A DNA stretch of 62,857 nt, the filler included, from Collodictyon triciliatum (Eukaryota): the NCBI GenBank assembly GCA_043381765.1. It is 20 parts of 20 records of this genome, joined end to end, with 100 filler letters (N's around TTAATTAATTAA, not from the genome) between each part and the next. Parts side by side here need not be neighbours in the genome. Positions count along the whole stretch, not along the records: positions 18,920 to 21,968 come from JBHJMP010007861.1; 19 more parts are not named here. One strand, given 5' to 3'. The position numbers and the translations under genes are program-made. The notes beneath the pieces are model-generated. The model had not been told where the DNA came from. It did not search any database and saw only the letters and a list, made by a program, of their open reading frames with translations. This document shows, piece by piece, positions 18,820-62,086 of the stretch (positions are counted from its first letter, which is position 1; each line of letters starts with the position of its first letter).

Positions 18820-19724
18820 NNNNNNNNNNNNNNNNNNNNNNNNNNNNNNNNNNNNNNNNNNNNTTAATTAATTAANNNNNNNNNNNNNNNNNNNNNNNNN
18901 NNNNNNNNNNNNNNNNNNNTTCTTTTTCTTTTTCTTTTTCTTTTTCTTTTTCTTTTTCTTTTTCTTTTTCTTTTTCTTTTTCTTTTTCTTTTTCTTTTTC
19001 TTTTTCTTTTTCTTCGGTCTCATTCGGCCTGTAAACGGATATACTTCATTACAAAGGTTTTGACAAACTCGATTTTATCCTTTTCATGGCACAACACTTT
19101 CTATACAACGAAAGTAAAGCCATACATACCATTTTATTGCACAGACAGCCATCGAATTAAATCTGGATTGACAAAAGCAGGAGCTTTGATGAATCCAAGA
19201 AACTACCTGAATAATACAATAGTATACTTAGTTTATATATTTAAAAGATTAAAAATACTTAACAATCTCATTCTATTCATATAATCAACTTATACTTTAT
19301 TTTTCATTTATGTAATATTATGGCATTAAAATTCAAAAAAAGTACAAACAAGCCCTTGCCTTTGCCCAGACAGAACCCACCCCATAAACCTGCCACCAAA
19401 CATGCATTCCAAAAAAGCATACTATCCACGCTTGCAGTGGTAATCATGTCGTTTGGGGCCGATACATCGACTTTCAGCCGCAATGGCTATACGGCCGTCC
19501 TTTCGAACTCGCCGAGTCGGCACTTAGTATTTCGTCTCAACTCTCTTATAAAAAAAAAACTTTGTGTGTCTGTTTGCCGCAATGCGCACATTTTGAGGGT
19601 CTTGGTAGATGCTTAATTTTACATTAGTTAATTTTTTTTAATTAAATGACTGTTTGACTAAAGTTTTATTAAAATTGAAAAATCGGCAGTTTTCAAAAGG
19701 AAAAAGTAAAACAAAGACTTTCAC

Positions 19725-21656
19725 ATGAAGAAAAGAAAATGTCTTGAGTTTGAGAGTCTAAAGTCTGTAAACCACACTATCGAAATGTGAAAACATCTCT
19801 CAAGTCGATTGTAAAGAATCTGGATGACTTTTACAAAATCAACGGTACGTTTTATTATTGTCATAATTTGGTTGCCGACACTTATCTGCTTTCAAGATGG
19901 TACATACTGAAATCACAACAACTTCCAACAGTAGATGAAATGTTTTATTTTATTTTATTGTACGCTTTAAAGACAGTCGGAATAGTTTCACAAGAAAGTC
20001 TCACAAGATTAAAAAAAATAAGTATCGACATGATGACTTTTTATCTCAATGATTTTCGATATCTTTTGTCCCAAGAAGAACGCTTTCCGTTGGTTTGACT
20101 GTCTCATGTATTACCGTGCTTGGCGAAGCAAATGCTAACAGCTTATCATAATAACATTAAGGAGCACTTTGTAAAGAGGTTACTGAGCTTTATAAATCAA
20201 ACAGTTCCTAACGATGAGAATATTACGGAAGCTGTTAAAAAGGATAGTTACGAAAGTTAGAAAAAAGCCATCTTCAGGAATCTCGAAATACCAGAACAAT
20301 ATAAAGAATGGACTAAAACGCATTTGAATTATATCATTCCCAGCGATATTGTAAATGGTATCGAATATGACGCCAAAGTCCATCCAAATAAGTACATACC
20401 ATGTCTGATATACATGAATCGCATTTTTGAGGACATTGGAACCAAACTATTTCAATCAATCTCTATAAGAACTAACAATATAACATGTCATATAACTCTA
20501 GATACTGTATGTTTGATAGATATATTAGTATTATCTGGAAAACATTATTAATGAAGAAAATATCAGGATGCAAAGAGACACTATGGGACGAGTTCTTTGA
20601 AATGAAGAAGAGGGTCTTTCATCAAAGAGACTACAATTTTAAATACATGATACAAACAGACGGCTTGGCGGTGTCTTTACTGTTTGAAAAGAAAGGTCTT
20701 TCAAATTCAAAATTCAAATATAATCAAAACCCAAGAGTATGTCGATTTAGATGAACTTCCCGAGGAGCAAGCATCTTTATTAGCGAAAAAAATAGATAGT
20801 TGGAGTGGACGCAGGCAAGTTTAATTTGGTTTACATGGTGGATGAGGTAGGTAAGAAATTGCGTTACACAACACAGCAAAGAATACATGATAGCAAATCT
20901 TTTTTAAATCAAAAAAATCTAGCACGAGAAAAAAAGTACAAGGATTTTAGGGATATACATGGCAACATGTTTACAAAGTGCTGTTTCTTTTAGTCCCATG
21001 TCTTTTGAAGAGAATCAGCAGTTTGAAACATCAAGAGTGTCTTTAATTGTTTTAGAGAGACATGACTGAGTAAACATAATACATGCTCGGTCGATTATGA
21101 TAAATTTCGAAACATGTATCTATGAAATCAAGATACCAGACAAAACTTTCCAGATTTTATGAACAAGTTTTCGAAAGATGAGGTGTAGACAGTATGATAA
21201 TACAAAAAGAAGTGAACAATTGTTTATGGACCGAATCGAAAAGACATTTTAGCAAGGATGTTGTACTTGTGTATGGAAACTGGAGCAGAAAATCCCAGAT
21301 GAACCATTTTATGCCAACAATCGGAAGAGGATTACGAAAAATACTATCCAAACGTTTTGAAATAGTAAGTGTAAATGAATTTAGAACCTCCAAGATGTGT
21401 TGCAACTGCGAAAAAGAACTGGGATATATGAAACTGAAAGGAAACTCAAAAAAAAGTATATAGATGTCTCATATGCAAAGAGTGGAATCGGTCAGAAAGC
21501 AAACAAACTGTATTCTTGACAAGGGACTTTAACAGCGCTAAAAATATACTCAAGAAAGTTTTTTTAACTCTTCAAAATATGCATACACCTTCCTTTAAAA
21601 AAAACTAGGCTGTCGGGTCTTTCCTGGCAGCGTTCACCACTACACGGTCATAGTGA
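19725..21656 (+). pseudogene. Fanzor1-type (TnpB-derived) RNA-guided endonuclease, disrupted by stops and frameshifts
   Basis: Fragments in order: KTSLKSIVK, MIQTDGLAVSLLF, RuvC-I IVGVDAGKFNLVYM, YGNWS..MPTIGRGLRKIL, RuvC-II VNEFRTSKMCCNC, RCLICK and RuvC-III LTRDFNSAKNI. About 640 codons, no introns. Confidence 0.9.
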
Positions 21657-21724
21657 AGAAAGTGGTGAGACCTTAGATACTAGCGCACCAGGTTCACCGA
21701 TCTTTTGGAGGTATGACCTTCTAG
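21610..21724 (+). ncRNA. Putative Fanzor omegaRNA scaffold, copy 1
   Basis: Overlaps the ORF end. Stems GGTC(21616-19)/GACC(21669-72), TCACCACT(21634-41)/AGTGGTGA(21661-68) and ACTAG(21679-83)/CTAGT(21721-25) are all kept in copy 2. The position matches known TnpB/Fanzor omegaRNAs. Boundaries are inferred. Confidence 0.6.
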
Positions 21725-22068
21725 TTTCATCTATGAATATTCCAATTTTTCACCAAGTCATATCGAACCAATTTCTTCCCAAACAACCAAACAAGAAATT
21801 GCGCACGCGACTAATTCCAATATTGCTATGGAATGGTTGAAATCAAAAGAAAAACAAAAAACTAAAAACAAAAAACTAAAAACAAAAAACTAAAAACAAA
21901 AAACTAAAAACAAAAAACAAAAAACAAAAAACAAAAAACAAAAAACAAAAAACAAAAAACAAAAAACANNNNNNNNNNNNNNNNNNNNNNNNNNNNNNNN
22001 NNNNNNNNNNNNTTAATTAATTAANNNNNNNNNNNNNNNNNNNNNNNNNNNNNNNNNNNNNNNNNNNN

Positions 22069-41222: not shown

Positions 41223-43120
41223 CTGTTTTTTTTTAGGAAGGGCGTATGCAAATATTTTAAGGATTAAAAGAACTTTGTCGAGTTTATTTTGGGTGCTGTT
41301 AAAGTCCCTTGTCAAGAATACACTTTGTTTGCTTTCTGAGTGATTGCATTTTTTACATATGAGACATCTATACACCGTTTTTTTGGGGTTTCCTTTCAGT
41401 TTCATACATTCCGGTTCCTTTTCGCAGTTGCAGCACATCTTGGAAGTTCTAAAGTCATCTACACTAACTGGTTCAAAACGTTTGGATACTATTTTTCGTA
41501 ATCCTCTTCCGATTGTTGCTATAAGACGTTTCATCGGAGATTTTCTGCTCCAGTCTCCATACGCCAGTACAACATCCTCGCCAAATGTCTTTTCGATTCG
41601 GTCCATAAACAATGCTTCACTTATTTTTGTATTAACATACTGTCTCCATCTCATCTTTCGAAAAGTAACGTGTTCATAAAATCTGGATAATTCTATCTGG
41701 TATCTTGATTTCATAGATACATATTTTCGAAATTTTTCATAATCGACCGCGCATGAATTATGTTTACTCAGTTCTGTCTCTAAATCGATTAAATATACTC
41801 TTGATGTCTCAAACCACTGATTCTCTTCAAAGGTTACATGACCAAAAGAAATGGCACTTTGTAAACCTATTGTCATGCATGTCCCTAAAGCATTGTACAT
41901 TTCTTTCTTTTTCTCGCGCAAGAGTATTTTGTGATTTTTAAGAGATTTGCTATCACGCCTTCTTTGATGAGCCGTATAATGTAATTTCTTACTGTCACAT
42001 CCACCATGTAAACCAAATTAAACTTGGCTGCATTCACTCCAGCTATATTTTTTTTCCGCTAATAAAGATAGCTGCTCTTCTGAAAGTTCATCTATATAAA
42101 CATGTATTTGAGTATCTTGATTATATTTGAATTTTGAATTTGAAATACCTTTCTTTTCAAATAATAATGACACCGCCAAGCCGTCTGTTTGTATCATGCA
42201 TTTAAAATTGTAGTCTATTTGATGAAAGACCCTCTTCTTCATTTCAAAGAACTCATCCATAGGTCTCTTTGCATCCTAATAATTCTTCATTAATAATGTT
42301 TTTCCAGTTGATACTAATATATATCAAACGTGCAGTATCTAGAGTAATATAATATGGTAAATTGTTAGTTCTTATAGAGATTGATTGAAGCAGTTTGGTT
42401 ACAGTGTCCTCGAAAATGCAATTCATGTAAATCAGATATGGAGTGTACTTATTTGGATTGACTTTGGCGTCATATTCGATACCTTTTACAATATCGCTGG
42501 GAATGATACGATTCAAATGCATTCTAGCCCAATCTTTATATTGTTCCGGTATTTCGAGATTCTTGAAGATGGCTTTTTTTTTTAACTTTCGTAACTCTGC
42601 CTTTTTTTTTTTAATAGGTTCCGTAACGTACTCATCTTTAGGAACTGTTTGATTTATAAAGCGCAGTAACCTCTACAAAAGTGCTACTTAATATTTTTAT
42701 GATAAGCTGTTAACATTTGCTTTGCCAAGTACGATAATACACGAGACAGTCCAACCAACGGAAAGCGTTCTTCTTGGGACAAAAGGAATCGAAAATCATT
42801 GAGATAAAAAGTCATCATTTCGATACTCATATCTGGATGTTTTAAACTTGCAGGTCTATCTTGTGAAACTATTCCGACTGTCTTTAAAGAGTACAAAAAA
42901 AGTTTTCATCGGTTGTTGAGAGTTGTTGTGATTTCAATACGTAACATCTTGCAAATATATAAGTGTCGGTAACCAAATTATGACACAATAAAAGCGTGTC
43001 GTTGATTTTTTCATAGTCATCCGCATTCTTTACAATCGACTTTAGAGATGTTTTCACATTTCGATAGTCTGGTTTTACAGACTTTAGACTCTCAGGCTCA
43101 AGACGGTTTCTCTTCTTCAT
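41175..43120 (-). pseudogene. Fanzor1-type RNA-guided endonuclease, disrupted
   Basis: Fragments 42884-43120, 42684-42896, 42253-42522, 42018-42260 and 41175-41921 carry KTSLKSIVK, IQTDGLAVSLLF, IAGVNAAKFNLVYM, YGDWS..TIGRGLRK, VDDFRTSKMCCNC, CLICKKC and LTRDFNS. Confidence 0.9.
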
Positions 43121-44095
43121 CTGAAATTCTTTGCTTTACATTTTCCTTTAAATAACTACCAAGTTTTCGATTTTAGCAAAACTTTATTCAATCAGTCAAT
43201 TTGATTATATAAAATAAAAAACTGTATTAAATCAAATGTAAAATTAAGCATCTACCGAGACTCTCAAAATGTGCGCATTGTGGCAAACAAACACACAATT
43301 TTTTTTTTAAGTGATTTGAGAGAAAACGCTGAGAGCCGACTCGGCGAGTTCGAAAGGACGGCCGTATAGCCATGGCGACTGAAAGTTAAGATATCGGCCC
43401 CAAACGACATGATTATCGCCGCAAGTGTGGATAGTATGCTTTTTTGAAATGCATGCTTGGTGGCGGATTTATAGGCTGGGTTCTGTCTGGGCCAAGACAA
43501 GGGCTTGTTTGTCATTTTTAATTAATATTGCATAAACGGAAAATAAAATATAAATTGATTACAGGAACACAATGAGATTATTAAGTATTTTAAACCTTAT
43601 CATATAAACTAATCATACTATTATATTGTTCAGGTTGTTTCTTGGATTCATCAAAGCTCCTGCTTTCGTCAACCCAGATTTAATTTAATGGTTGTCTGTG
43701 CAATAAACTGCTATATATGGGTACACTTTCGTTGTGTAATGAGTGTTGTGCCTTGGAAGGATAAAACCAAGCTCGTCACAATCTTTGTAATAAGTTTATC
43801 CATTTACGGACTGAATGAGACTGAAGAAGAAAAGAAAAGAAAAAGAAAAAGAAAAAGAAAAGGAAAAAGGAAAAAGAAAAAAAAGAAAAAAAGAAAAAAA
43901 GAAAAAAAGAGAAAAAGAGAAAAAGAGAAAAAGAGAAAAAGAGAAAAAGAGAAAAAGAGAAAAAGAGAAAAAGAGAAAAAGAGAAAAAGAGAAAANNNNN
44001 NNNNNNNNNNNNNNNNNNNNNNNNNNNNNNNNNNNNNNNTTAATTAATTAANNNNNNNNNNNNNNNNNNNNNNNNNNNNNNNNNNNNNNNNNNNN

Positions 44096-57843: not shown

Positions 57844-59814
57844 ATTGCGAGATTAATGCATTTTTTAGAGACATTTTAATTGGGGATGATAACAAGCAGC
57901 ATTTAGTCATTTTTATTGCCTTTTTTAAAATGATTTCTTGATTAATATGAAGACCCACTCTGGCAACGAATATTTAGCCCAAGAAGCAAACTTTGCAGAA
58001 AACAGAAAGGCGCTATCGTTCTCGCTATTTTGCATCAAACATAAGAATGTGGTTACTTGTTTATGCATCTAATCGAAAAGATCGAAGTGGGGTTGGATGA
58101 CNNNNNNNNNNNNNNNNNNNNNNNNNNNNNNNNNNNNNNNNNNNNNNNNNNNNNNNNNNNNNNNNNNNNNNNNNNNNNNNNNNNNNNNNNNNNNNNNNNN
58201 NNNNNNNNNNNNNNNNNNNNNNNNNNNNNNNNNNNNNNNNNNNNNNNNNNNNNNNNNNNNNNNNNNNNNNNNNNNNNNNNNNNNNNNNNNNNNNNNNNNN
58301 NNNNNNNNNNNNNNNNNNNNNNNNNNNNNNNNNNNNNNNNNNNNNNNNNNNNNNNNNNNNNNNNNNNNNNNNNNNNNNNNNNNNNNAAGAAAAAAAGAAA
58401 AGAAAATATCAGTAACGGCAGCGCACAGTTTCCGCAACCACTCACATGCGAATTGAATTGATGTCCAGCAACTCCTTCTCCTCCGTCCTGTACTGCTGCA
58501 GCTGAAGGCGTTGGCCGTGCGCAACCGACCTGATTATAGAGGCTCTTTCTTGGGACGCTGGACTCTCGCCTCACACGTCCGCCGCAACCTGAGTGGGGGC
58601 GCCTGAGCAAAGAAAACACATGTCTTTTGGGGGGGTGCGAATAATTTCGTGTTTTTCTGTTCCGAAAGGTTTCCTTTTAAAATTAACCTCCGGTTTGGCA
58701 CAAATGCGTCCCAAAATACTTTCAACCGTGTGTTTGTGGATTTGTTTGTTTGCACAAGACAGAGTCCTCGAAGGTTGTTCCATTGCCATACCGCACAATG
58801 TGAATAGATGTAGTGATCGCACTGGGAGGGACAGAGTTGTGAGGAACAATAAAAAAAAAACACACACAATGAACAAGAAAAAAAATCTGTTTTGTTGAGA
58901 AACAATGAATATACTGAGAGACAATAAGGACGCATTCTCCAGATAATCATAGTATTACACTGCGTTCTTTCCTTCCTTCTTCTCCCAGCTCACCACATTC
59001 TTAGGCCGGAAAAAAAAACACGCAAGCGACCGGAAAGAGGGATCCTGAGACGGACGAGACCGCCTACCACAGAATGCCTCGTGGAAGGCCTGCTGACTGA
59101 ACGTAGACAGGGAAGGCTGACGCAACTAACCCAGAGAGCAAAAAGGTCACTTGACCGCATCCCTTACAACACAGGTTATTCACCGAGACACACCGACGAT
59201 CAAGACGCCAGCTCCCACCGACCTGTGAGTACAACAACCTACTAATAAGACAGAGTGAGCTATTTGAAACGAATAATTATAATTATAATGATAATGATAA
59301 TGATAATGTTAATGATAATGTTAATGATAATGTTAATGATAATGATAATGATAATAAAGGTGATAAAAATACCTATCGAGCTCTAGCCATCGATCCACTT
59401 GTAGCAAGATAATTATGAATATAGTGTCCAGTATTGGTTGCTCTGATTAATATATATTTAGCTTTTTCTTTAGCTTTTTCTTTTTCTTTTCTTTTTCTTT
59501 CCCTTTTTCTTTCCCTTTTTCTTTCCCTTTTTCTTTCCCTTTTTCTTTCCCTTTTTCTTTCCCTTTTTCTTTCCCCTTTTCTTTTTTCTTCCCCTTTTCT
59601 TTTCTTTTCTTTTCTTTTCTTTTCTTTTCTTTTCTTTTCTTTTCTTTTCTTTTCTTTTCTTTTTTCTTCCCCTTTTCTTTTCTTTTCTTTTCTTTTCTTT
59701 TCTTTTCTTTTCTTNNNNNNNNNNNNNNNNNNNNNNNNNNNNNNNNNNNNNNNNNNNNTTAATTAATTAANNNNNNNNNNNNNNNNNNNNNNNNNNNNNN
59801 NNNNNNNNNNNNNN

Positions 59815-60096
59815 TATGCAGCGGCCAGGAATAATCTCTCTGAAGCGAGGATTGAGTTTGGCTATCCATTTCTTGCATAAAAACGCTACACCTGCATGTC
59901 TCTGTTGATTATCATCACAGGAATACATTTGTGGACCTTTCCATATTTCATCATTGGTTAGATTGTCAGGGCTGAGCCATGTTTCTTGGAGGCAAATGAT
60001 ATCTGCGTGAGAGAAAAGAGCAGTGTTTAGGGCCTCTTTTCTTTTTTGGGGGTCGTTAATCCCCCTAAAGTTCCACGACAGAACGTTAAAACGCAT
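59815..60096 (-). CDS. LINE ORF2 N-terminus, apurinic-like (EEP) endonuclease, partial
   Basis: VLSWNFRGIND..KR, ADIICLQETWL, AGVAFL and IIPGRCI are the canonical L1 endonuclease motifs. Confidence 0.9.
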
Positions 60097-60103
60097 ATAA
60101 AAT

Positions 60104-62086
60104 CTATTGGCTTTTGGAGGCCGTAGCCTCCGGTGGTTTGCCCTCTTCGCTGGAGCTGGGTTGCTCAGGGTGGGATGGTTTACTCGGGGTGTCCTTCATT
60201 TGGCCGGTGTTATGATTGCTCGCGGCTCGGCCAGGATTTGTCGTATGGTCTTGGGCTTCGGGCTACAGCCCCTTTGTAGCTGGCGTGTTGGGAGATGCAC
60301 TCTGTCGGTCACAAGTACCCCTCGGTTCCAATTTTTCCCCCTCACCCACGCGGCAGGCAGGGCTAACCATGTTTCCGCTTTCATTCTGGCTTGCTTTCTG
60401 GCTCGCTATATTCGGTGGTGTGCTTGACTGATTCATTCTCTTTTCATCGGACGAGGCTTTATCTTCGACGGTTTCGTTCTTTTTTGGTGCGCCAGTGATT
60501 GTAGGATGAATAACCGGTGTTTTATATTCGTCTACGTTTCTTTTTCTTGGATATGAAGGTGATTCCAGCTGGGGAGTCGCAAAAGTTTCGACAGTAGGTC
60601 TGTTTTCATAAAAAGTACTTGAGGAGTAATTTGTTGTTCCCGAAGCTTCGAGGTGCTCACTTTCTTCTTCAGCAGAACCTTCTATGATGACGACAGGTTG
60701 GATGGACTGATGTTCCTCCAATCCCGAGTCTGGGATGTCGCTTCTTATGGATTGCGCAATAATTGCTGAAGAAAGAGTCTCTTGGGTGGTTCCAGGAGCC
60801 ATGACCTCTAAGGAGGCAGGCGGGTGTGGTTTGCTGGGTGTCATTATGCTGTTTCCCGATTCTGTTACCGAGTTGGCTTGGGCTTCCCTTTCTTCTGCGT
60901 CCTCTCCATGGTTTAAAGTAGAGCTTGGTGAGATATCATCGGCTTGAGGTGGTTGGTAATCTCGGAGACTAGCGATGTTTCCTCCACTTCCTCGAAGCCA
61001 TTCCACGATTGATATTGCTTCCTCCGTGTTCATCGGTGAACTTGACGCACTTTCGGGAAGATCGCCTGATGATTCGTCCATTATTTCGATATTCATTTCT
61101 TGATTTTGGGGCCGCTCCTGAACCTTTGTCTTGATTAAGACTTCGAGCACATCATCCACGGACGTCTTGTCGCGATTTCTCCCTCTGACATTTGAGGACG
61201 ACGCGCCTTGATTTTGGCCTTGTTGTTGGGTTCTGGGCTTGTTTTGCACAGACGATTCCTGCACGGTTGGCCAGTCTTTAGCGCTGAAGTCGGCTACTTC
61301 TTTGTTGAAGCCCGAGAAGCGAGTGGTGGCGTTTTGTTTTTTGGTGGCCGCCTGATTGGTGGTGATTTTTTGTGGTTTGACCTTGTGTGTCATACCCTTC
61401 TTTGTTGGGGAGGGTTTTTTTTCCCTTTATTCGATTCAAAGTTTGTTGGGGAGAGTTGATGGGATGTCAGACTCTTTGAGGGCGCGTATCTCCACGCGAC
61501 AGCGTTTGCCATGAATGACGACAAAGTGAGGTATTTTCCCCAATTCTTCCTGTACTTTGTCATAAGTAACGAGTGCATCATTCACGCGTATTCCTCCAAT
61601 CTTTGTCCAGTTAACTTTGATTTATGATGAAGTATTCGCTGCAGGCCTTAAAAATGTCAGTCCAGCTGACCCCCAGCGGTATGTTAGACAGGTGCGCAAC
61701 CTTTGTGACGGTTTTTGCTGGCATGGGAGTGTATTGGAGATTGAAGAGCTGGAAAGATCTCCTCTTTAATGTAGGCGGCTGCGTTTTCTTTTCTTGGGAA
61801 GGCGATCCTGAGTCCGAGGGCAGGGCTGTCCACCATTAGAGTCACGTCCTTCTCGAAGCACTTTCGGGCTTCCATAACCTCCCGCAGTTGCTTGCATATA
61901 TTACTACGGTTTGCGAAAGAGAGAACCGGCCATTGCTTGCCCCGAAGGCGGACAAAGCAGTCTTCATCTTTGAAGAGTTCGTTCTCAATCGCACTTTTTG
62001 ATCGCGGCATGTCAGCCACGATGGTCGATCGGGAGGTTCTGCTTCCCGATTCAAGCTCGACCCTGCACGAGGCTGACTGTCGCCAT
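60104..62086 (-). pseudogene. LINE ORF1 (gag-like), with stops and frameshifts
   Basis: EPPDRPSW(A)DM near the N-terminus, then KIGGIRVNDALVTYDKV.EELGKIPHFVVIHGKRCRVEI and a long disordered tail. Premature TAG at 60263-60265 is in frame with the terminal TAG at 60104-60106. Confidence 0.7.

Follow-up and report, generated by a model that had tools for sequence, protein, structure and literature searches.

Two decayed copies of a repeat unit with a Fanzor1-type gene in the genome of Collodictyon triciliatum

Fanzor nucleases, small RNA-guided DNA cutters of eukaryotes, are relevant both to genome editing and to transposon biology. Fanzor1, the eukaryotic and giant-virus relative of TnpB, is an RNA-guided RuvC endonuclease with a glutamate just before its zinc finger. 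A preliminary description of 62,857 nucleotides from Collodictyon triciliatum (GCA_043381765.1; the window) proposed a multi-copy Fanzor1-type element there. Is this a working nuclease gene or the remains of one, and how did it come to be present twice? The window consists of 20 contigs of about 3.05 kb each with N spacers between them; copy 1 is carried by contig 7 (18920-21968) and copy 2 by contig 14 (40952-43995).

Comparison with blastn paired 18921-21697 with 43918-41134 on the reverse strand, at 83.9% identity over 2833 columns with 40 gap openings, so that two separate contigs do carry the same unit of about 2.7 kb, as had been proposed. Global alignment of copy 1 and copy 2 gave 2281 matches, 385 mismatches and 97 gap columns, and identity was similar in the coding and non-coding parts of the unit. 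Copies 1 and 2 are homologous; a third copy of the 2.7-kb repeat was not found by blastn among the 20 contigs of the window. In copy 1 the unit starts at 19012, directly after a (CTTTTT)n microsatellite (18920-19011) that opens the contig and hides the left end; in copy 2 the counterpart microsatellite (43831-43995) follows the 5′ non-coding part. The left flank is thus cut off by microsatellite at both contig ends, and the left end of the unit lies beyond both contigs. On the right, clear homology runs to about 21705 in copy 1, with weaker similarity to about 21735 that makes the boundary fuzzy, and stops at about 41127 in copy 2. This is about 40-70 bp past the stop codon; A-rich sequence follows the boundary in both copies, and the sequences and microsatellites beyond differ. 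The limits first given for copy 1, 19011-21724, were therefore about right. A search of the unit for terminal inverted repeats found only microsatellite or low-complexity pairs. No Pfam family was detected in any of the 10 upstream reading frames tested, in agreement with the earlier remark that the visible unit holds no transposase.

Each copy comprises a 5′ non-coding part, a Fanzor1 pseudogene and a 3′ tail. In copy 1, on the plus strand, these occupy 19012-19724 (713 bp, of which about 19358-19560 form a G+C-richer island), 19725-21665 and 21666-21735; in copy 2, on the minus strand, they occupy 43121-43830, 41166-43120 and 41100-41165. The 5′ part of copy 1 is about 85% identical to that of copy 2 and has no counterpart in viral relatives. 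Aligned with P0001, an intact relative of 648 aa, the pseudogenes were 59.4% (copy 1, 635 codons) and 58.4% (copy 2, 640 codons) identical. All the motifs named in the preliminary description were located, but VGVDAG occurs in copy 1 only. Copy 1 contains TDGLAVS (20656-20676), RuvC-I GVDAGK with its aspartate kept (20802-20819), GNWS (21275-21286), VNEFRTSKMCCNC (21371-21409), which comprises the RuvC-II glutamate (VNEF), then TS and the first zinc-finger cysteine pair, CLIC with the second cysteine pair (21465-21476), and RuvC-III TRDFN (21519-21533). It thereby retains the catalytic D, E and RD and all four zinc-finger cysteines, with the motifs spread over three reading frames. The corresponding elements of copy 2 are TDGLAVS (42188-42168), GVNAAK at RuvC-I, where N replaces the catalytic D (42040-42023), GDWS (41558-41547), VDDFRTSKMCCNC in the RuvC-II region, with D for E in VDDF (41462-41424), and TRDFN (41312-41298).

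To what family did the gene belong? No open stretch is longer than the 280 aa at 41178-42017 (minus strand, within copy 2); when compared with solved structures, this piece matched below E 0.001 only the Fanzor1 proteins PpFz1 (6e-10), SpuFz1 (1e-7) and GtFz1 (1e-6). P0001 matched the three solved Fanzor1 proteins at 2e-28, 3e-24 and 4e-23. A profile of 64 relatives matched the three structures at 4e-93, 3e-87 and 8e-63, and spanned SpuFz1 end to end (profile positions 3-610). In each of these searches three of the five matches listed fell below E 0.05, all of them Fanzor1; with the profile, the next match among the solved structures had an E-value of 0.06, and no Fanzor2, TnpB or Cas12 appeared up to E 1. 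When the 280-aa piece of copy 2 was modelled with AlphaFold (pLDDT 79.9), Foldseek placed SpuFz, PpFz and GtFz at ranks 1-7, with E-values of 1e-7 to 8e-6 and query-normalised TM-scores of 0.33-0.46; these scores are modest because neither the N-terminal half nor the first RuvC strand is part of the piece. Cas12, TnpB and Fanzor2 followed only from E 7e-4 upward, with ApmFz2 at rank 16 (E 0.011). Pfam searches of eight window pieces, with a library that does not include PF26935 (DUF8286), returned only sub-threshold matches to Cas12f1-like_TNB in two of them (E 0.009 and 0.027).

Conserved residues gave the same assignment. D364, E555 and R603-D604 of P0001 are invariant across the 64 relatives, as is G521, and the four cysteines show conservation of 90% or more. 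The published Fanzor/TnpB motif, D-X(125,275)-[TS]-[TS]-X-X-[C4 zinc finger]-X(5,50)-RD (Bao & Jurka 2013, PMC3627910), is fitted by P0001 with D364, T558-S559, C562/C565/C587/C590 and R603-D604. Copy 1 has all its elements in order, over three frames; in copy 2 the first D is replaced by N. Two further residues, G500 and E536 in the Bao & Jurka numbering, are described as conserved in Fanzor1, the glutamate being shifted beside the zinc finger (Jiang 2023). Judging from spacing and context, G521 and E555 of P0001 probably correspond to them; at these sites copy 1 has GNWS and VNEF, and copy 2 has GDWS and VDDF. Sequence, profile, fold and the conserved catalytic and zinc-finger residues together solidly place the gene in Fanzor1, as first proposed.

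The state of the two genes was assessed by frameshift-aware alignment to P0001. Copy 1 has 10 frameshifts (19768, 20550, 20725, 20795, 20946, 21065, 21109, 21168, 21247 and 21449) and three premature stops (20096-20098, 20258-20260 and 21606-21608). Copy 2 has five frameshifts (42894, 42673, 42321, 42047 and 41997) and two premature stops (42686-42684 and 42278-42276). Neither copy has an intact frame with a complete catalytic triad, and copy 2 has the D-to-N change at RuvC-I in addition. The intronless gene of about 640 codons, and with it the nuclease gene, of the preliminary description were thus not borne out: both copies are broken and are pseudogenes. Breaks were read through as X, in the trees only.

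Between the copies there are 28 indels of 1-14 bases each. Copy against copy, dN/dS was 0.62 over 608 codons (dN 0.131, dS 0.212), as against a non-coding divergence of 0.167. Both copies are today inert DNA in near-neutral drift. One frameshift, in an A run at 20795 in copy 1 and 42047 in copy 2, is common to both, with no indel between the copies there. The last common ancestor of the two was therefore probably already broken, which is equally compatible with mobilisation in trans and with plain duplication.

We consider it likely that a single repeat unit, at least 2.7 kb long and once carrying a Fanzor1 gene, has left two old copies here, each of which decayed separately. From what is established for TnpB and Fanzor (Saito 2023; Jiang 2023), one would expect the ancestral protein to have bound a guide RNA encoded by the 3′ end of the same element and to have cut DNA beside a short adjacent motif. 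The element itself would have been moved by a transposase supplied from elsewhere, and this would explain the duplication of a copy with a dead nuclease gene. A mobile character is suggested by the stop in homology shortly past the stop codon, and by the occurrence of the viral relatives as compact repeated units. Counting against this explanation, the left end is not visible, the right boundary is fuzzy, the common frameshift fits plain duplication equally well, and the visible unit shows no transposase and, low-complexity pairs aside, no terminal inverted repeats. Only two copies were seen as well, and it is on these that the earlier suggestion of a sizeable, multi-copy family is based.

A covariance model (R1) was built from 36 viral 3′ regions, and the whole window was scanned with filters off. 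The best-scoring of the 21 matches at E≤10 (E 0.05) fell on an unrelated contig, and the 3′ ends of the copies had no match; the best match in either copy (E 0.64) lay away from the 3′ end. Thus a guide RNA was not shown in the window copies, and a likeness noted by eye between the copies' 3′ tail and the beginning of the viral RNA was not supported by the scan. Two hairpins were predicted at about 21609-21680 in both copies, with z-scores against shuffles of only -1.45 and -1.20, which are not significant. The G+C-richer upstream island was no more stable than shuffles (z +0.15), and Rfam gave no matches on contig 7 up to E 1. An upstream open frame at 19263-19613 had no Pfam family, and a pN/pS of 0.59 over 73 codons from only 29 differences.

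Ordinary segmental duplication would produce two such copies in another way: a Fanzor1 gene arrived once and died, and the surrounding DNA was then copied without transposition. The common frameshift fits this explanation, as do the 713-bp upstream part, which is as similar between copies as the gene and is absent from viral units, the similar microsatellite that both copies enter on the left, and the weak similarity over some 30 bp beyond the clear right boundary. However, past about 21735 and 41100 the sequences cannot be aligned, and the terminal microsatellites are (AAAAAC)n in one and (GA)n in the other; the boundary lies shortly past the stop codon, at the place where elements of the relatives terminate; and two hits in 20 size-neighbouring contigs seem, on an unquantified estimate, more than a single duplication would yield. 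We regard a segmental duplication as improbable.

The relatives of the gene bear on a second alternative, in which the copies are relics of endogenised giant-virus DNA, lying in decayed viral insertions rather than in a host transposon. A pattern search of IMG/VR gave 597 matches, of which 534 encode relatives; many of these lie on contigs of giant-virus MAGs, which measure up to 267 kb. Among Atlas clusters, the nearest are 92-100% viral (Nucleocytoviricota). The trees covered the window copies, P0001 and its companion P0107, and viral and metagenome relatives. The window copies grouped with P0001/P0107 with a support of 100, and this group was sister to a clade that includes IMG/VR loci (support 95 in FastTree and 94 in IQ-TREE). 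In these trees the lineage arises within a radiation in which giant-virus contigs abound, nested among viral loci, and an integrated giant virus of Chlamydomonas that is described as carrying Fanzor1 elements provides a precedent (bioRxiv 10.1101/2024.09.03.611062). Against a viral insertion, neither 3-kb contig has another viral gene, the frames of at least 80 aa being Fanzor pieces or unassigned; base composition is as in the rest of the non-coding DNA of the window; and the group is set apart from the viral loci by a long stem of 0.69-0.73 changes per site. This origin appears very improbable. That the gene is live, its breaks being assembly or sequencing errors or programmed frameshifts, can practically be dismissed: the assembly is very fragmented and some frameshifts lie in homopolymer runs, but there are five substitution-type premature stops, indels of up to 14 bases between the copies, N for D at RuvC-I of copy 2, and nearly equal coding and non-coding divergence.

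P0001 and P0107 are known here only from metagenome contigs some 2.6 kb long, and the protein databases searched contained no relative more than 67% identical to the window copies. When metagenome contigs were scanned with P0001, one of 184 pattern matches was confirmed, at 21% identity, and so was not the contig of P0001. Eleven sequencing runs were listed, with shares of 0.05-0.08; they were mostly freshwater or lake metagenomes, with no RNA run among them, and nothing was concluded from them.

We return to the reading of two decayed copies of one repeat unit. A further, tentative suggestion, which we hold as possible though rather doubtful, is that the window copies and P0001/P0107 form a separate, host-genome-resident offshoot of the giant-virus Fanzor1 radiation, that giant virus-eukaryote transfer took place, and that live copies persist with a guide RNA of their own, non-viral type. 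If so, the window would record the passage of an RNA-guided nuclease element between giant viruses and eukaryotes of a lineage with no catalogued example. A catalogue of 3655 Fanzors, with up to 122 copies per genome, has been reported (Jiang 2023), and with thousands already listed two dead copies by themselves add little. Both window copies belong to an already known kind of element and are genuine but unremarkable decayed remains. They are of modest use as a marker that a lineage otherwise found almost only in giant-virus contigs has long been resident in a eukaryotic genome, long enough for about 15% divergence between copies, which fits the published idea that giant viruses and hosts exchange such elements. 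The viral side is the more useful by-product: it yields hundreds of intact relatives in which the 3′ RNA structure is well supported and the right end sharply defined.

Among known systems, the solved Fanzor1 proteins are SpuFz1 (8GKH, 9CEU-9CEZ), PpFz1 (9CF0-9CF3) and GtFz1 (9CER-9CET). The window lineage has the same order of RuvC-I D, G(D/N)WS, glutamate directly before TS, C4 zinc finger and RD, and the C-terminal-half fold of the window piece matches their chains first, with only 15-25% identity in the fold alignments. The metal ligands of SpuFz1 are reported as D383, E541, D606 and N385 (Saito 2023, PMC10432273). The window NEF/DDF aligns with DEY of SpuFz1, whose glutamate, from the chain numbering, is probably E541. 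Unlike the solved proteins, the window copies are pseudogenes with no guide RNA shown, and nothing like the 30-nt inverted repeats around SpuFz1 loci was found in the window unit.

CMe-1A of Cyanidioschyzon merolae is presented by Bao & Jurka (2013, PMC3627910) as an unclassified Fanzor1 element without inverted repeats. By that description, rather than by sequence comparison, it resembles the window unit in its length of about 3 kb, in having Fanzor1 as sole gene, in the lack of terminal inverted repeats and of determinable target duplications, and in copies about 80% identical to their own consensus; it has some 150 copies, compared with two seen in the window. The Chlamydomonas giant virus, a punuivirus, is described as having Fanzor1 elements that include forms with a Fanzor gene plus right-end guide, and a related Fanzor1 fragment of 80% identity is reported on host chromosome 17 (bioRxiv 10.1101/2024.09.03.611062). 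As in our case, a Fanzor1 lineage is common to giant viruses and a eukaryotic genome, and Fanzor-only and decayed forms occur. The punuivirus elements are stated to be expressed and more than 99% identical within each family, the full-length ones also carrying a Tc1/mariner-type transposase, whereas the window copies are about 15% diverged, dead and have no visible transposase.

Another known system is the giant-virus Fanzor1 clade with DUF8286 (PF26935), represented by IMG/VR loci L001-L080 and metagenome proteins P0006-P0105. Its units are compact, 2.0-2.1 kb long and repeated within single contigs, with an ORF, about 60-110 bp of 5′ and about 75-105 bp of 3′ sequence. The window unit differs in its 5′ part of at least 713 bp, unknown in viral units. 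The viral units end in a conserved structured RNA of 29 predicted pairs, 10 of them with compensatory changes, and have a conserved AAAGGTGTAAA block at which the RNA may end; the window 3′ tail, in contrast, fails to match the viral RNA model. Members of the clade are 37-47% identical in protein sequence to P0001, share the length class of about 620-660 aa with the window lineage, and show nucleotide similarity of 68-82% in the RuvC-II and zinc-finger stretch.

The window, 62,857 bases in all, comprises 20 contigs of about 3.05 kb each, longest first, with spacers of the form N44-TTAATTAATTAA-N44. The preliminary description reported one repeat unit on two of them, contig 7 (18920-21968) and contig 14 (40952-43995), and this was borne out by blastn. 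Positions 18921-21697 (copy 1, + strand) aligned with 43918-41134 on the opposite strand (copy 2) at 83.9% identity over 2833 columns, with 40 gap openings, and no other match to the unit was found within the window. When 19012-21720 was aligned globally to its counterpart, there were 2281 matches, 385 mismatches (226 transitions and 159 transversions) and 97 gap columns. In each 100-base stretch of the copy alignment 66 to 94 columns matched, and in this respect the 5′ non-coding part and the gene did not clearly differ. In neither copy can the unit's left end be seen, because a (CTTTTT)n-type microsatellite meets the unit there and terminates the contig. On the right, clear homology stops at about 21705 in copy 1 and 41127 in copy 2, and weaker similarity extends to about 21735 and 41100 respectively; past these points the copies could not be aligned, and their terminal microsatellites differ.

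The 713-bp upstream part of the unit gave no Pfam family in any of the 10 frames tested, had no counterpart in the viral loci by nucleotide comparison, and yielded no significant structure on folding. Both copies retain an open frame in a G+C-richer island of this upstream stretch, 117 aa long in copy 1 (19263-19613, + strand) and 85 aa long in copy 2 (43267-43521, - strand). A Pfam search with the frame gave no family, and its pN/pS of 0.59 over 73 codons comes from too few differences to judge coding status. Other contigs carry fragments of ordinary eukaryotic genes (Myb, SET+MYND, an isocitrate-dehydrogenase family exon, NHL repeats and a LINE-type endonuclease), and microsatellites were present at most of the contig ends inspected. 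The endonuclease fragment (Exo_endo_phos; 59770-60195, - strand; Pfam E 1.3e-8) opens the last contig. The isocitrate/isopropylmalate dehydrogenase exon (32391-33035, - strand; Pfam E 1.3e-21) adjoins a long microsatellite whose in-frame translation is a TSHHI repeat, and the junction probably reflects an intron or a join made in assembly.

The unit had also been said to carry a Fanzor1 gene with a series of nuclease motifs. Every motif named was present in the window, and the identification as Fanzor1 was upheld by structure matches, profile, residues and fold. Against solved structures, a 280-aa open piece (41178-42017, minus strand) matched the Fanzor1 proteins of Parasitella (6e-10), Spizellomyces (1e-7) and Guillardia (1e-6), with only two further rows, at E 0.47 and 2.8. 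In Pfam, the window's own pieces matched only Cas12f1-like_TNB, always below threshold. In protein databases the 280-aa piece was 59% identical to P0001, an intact metagenome protein of 648 aa. Of 8000 candidates scored against P0001, 104 were relatives at E ≤1e-3, almost all of them carrying the PF26935 (DUF8286) flag. P0001 itself aligned over both halves with the three solved Fanzor1 proteins (2e-28, 3e-24 and 4e-23). A profile of 64 relatives matched the same three at 4e-93, 3e-87 and 8e-63, the following row having E 0.06, and its positions 3-610 covered the Spizellomyces protein SpuFz1. D364, G521, E555, R603 and D604 were invariant across the 64 relatives, with conservation of at least 90% at the four zinc-finger cysteines. 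These residues conform to the Fanzor/TnpB motif as defined by Bao & Jurka (PMC3627910), and the conserved glutamate agrees with the one next to the zinc finger of Fanzors, as described by Jiang et al. (PMC10530073). In the comparison of the 280-aa piece with solved structures, the window's DDF/NEF aligned with DEY of SpuFz1, for which Saito et al. (PMC10432273) give the metal ligands as D383, E541 and D606; on our reading of the chain numbering, the glutamate position of DDF/NEF would be E541. The 280-aa piece was modelled in AlphaFold2 together with 55 relatives (pLDDT 79.9, pTM 0.71), and the model retrieved Fanzor1 chains at Foldseek ranks 1-7, with Cas12 variants, TnpB and mimivirus Fanzor2 ranked lower. 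Sequence, profile, conserved residues and fold thus agree that the window gene was a Fanzor1.

An intact gene was not found. Homologous coding pieces are dispersed across all three frames in a six-frame reading, and each copy was aligned to P0001 by a frameshift-aware dynamic programme. The gene of copy 1 (19725-21665) contains 10 frameshifts and 3 premature stops, with 377 of 635 matched codons identical to P0001, and that of copy 2 (43120-41166) contains 5 frameshifts and 2 premature stops, with 374 of 640 identical. The two copies are separated by 28 indels of 1-14 bases, and differ at RuvC-I (GVDAGK in copy 1, GVNAAK in copy 2) and RuvC-II (VNEF and VDDF respectively). Assembly error as the main cause of the breaks is excluded by the multi-base indels, the substitution-type stops and the catalytic substitution. 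A single break is common to both copies, a frameshift at 20795 in copy 1 and 42047 in copy 2, in an A run directly upstream of the RuvC-I motif (20788-20800; 42054-42042). As the frameshift is in the same place and no indel separates the copies there, their last common ancestor was probably out of frame already, although the A run may instead have slipped independently in each copy. Over 608 gap-free codons, dS was 0.212, dN 0.131 and dN/dS 0.62 (Nei-Gojobori), a ratio that correction for transition bias would raise, and the 5′ non-coding part had diverged by 0.167. Judged from these substitutions, divergence of the gene is close to neutral. The window holds two dead copies of a Fanzor1-bearing unit, about 15% diverged, and no working gene in either. 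On the basis of the two 3-kb contigs, a decayed mobile element is the likely reading, and duplication of a single insertion, considered on the same two contigs, is less favoured.

No database protein was closer than about 67% to the window copies, and those at about 67% were fragments. The closest intact relative, P0001/P0107 (648 aa), retains every catalytic residue. Its only records are on contigs of 2610 and 2597 bp, close in length to the unit described here; these sizes would fit a repeat assembling on its own. Comparison of P0001 with 1.84 billion cluster representatives gave 3147 proteins at E ≤1e-3, 1703 at ≤1e-10 and 537 at ≤1e-30. The Atlas protein clusters nearest to the lineage are 92-100% viral, mainly Nucleocytoviricota. 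Scanning IMG/VR with the family alignment produced at least 597 pattern matches, at least 534 of them encoding relatives, and the best 80 of those listed included many contigs from giant-virus MAGs, some reaching as much as 267 kb. Trees were made with FastTree (100 rows) and IQ-TREE quick (LG+G4, 54 rows), an X being written at each break of the two window copies. In both trees copies 1 and 2 paired with support 100, and the pair joined P0001/P0107, also with support 100, in a group on a long stem (0.69-0.73). The sister clade of this group included IMG/VR loci L001-L004 (support 95 in FastTree, 94 in IQ-TREE), and a larger enclosing group took in all viral loci used (86 and 87 respectively). 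Because most of the metagenome proteins are of no known origin and the root was set by outgroup choice, we read the trees as suggesting that the window lineage is nested in a virus-rich radiation, and as carrying no direction of transfer.

What pairs of viral loci have in common is limited to a compact 2.0-2.1 kb unit, in which the ORF is flanked by about 60-110 bp on its 5′ side and about 75-105 bp on its 3′ side. Strong conservation marks the 3′ part of this unit, which begins some 60 bases ahead of the stop codon and extends to a sharply conserved AAAGGTGTAAA block. The consensus structure from a 36-locus alignment (A5) has 29 predicted pairs, 10 of them with two-sided compensatory changes, and is located at L007:7759-7911, L013:2159-2309 and in 34 further IMG/VR loci. 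Some 60 bases at the end of the Fanzor1 ORF lie within the structured RNA, which terminates at the AAAGGTGTAAA block. These features are as expected for an omega-type guide RNA scaffold whose end coincides with the right end of the element. The RNA is probably both the guide-RNA scaffold and the right end of the compact element. Solo 3′-end copies of 39-53 bases, 91-97% identical, occur in inverted orientation elsewhere in viral contigs (L013:2267-2319 with L018:5155-5105, and L011:2992-3030 with L020:1924-1886), and may represent solitary ends or 'ghost' guide loci. In one viral locus (L021:3691-3941), the first stem of this 3′ RNA contains a G+C-rich palindromic insertion. A covariance model from the 36 viral loci gave no significant match at the 3′ ends of the window copies, hairpins predicted in both copies were no better than shuffles, and nucleotide similarity to the viral loci was limited to the part of the gene that encodes RuvC-II and the zinc finger. 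That the unit in the window had a guide RNA is thus inferred from membership of the family and not from observation.

A giant-virus relic is a further reading of the two 3-kb contigs, again less favoured than a decayed mobile element. Precedent for the place of the lineage among viral loci has been published: viral and cellular Fanzor1 proteins are intermingled in the account of Bao & Jurka (PMC3627910). An integrated giant virus of Chlamydomonas is described as carrying three Fanzor1 element families, and a host chromosome as carrying a related fragment at 80% identity (bioRxiv 10.1101/2024.09.03.611062; also review PMC13359090). The window element adds a member to this already known Fanzor1 kind.
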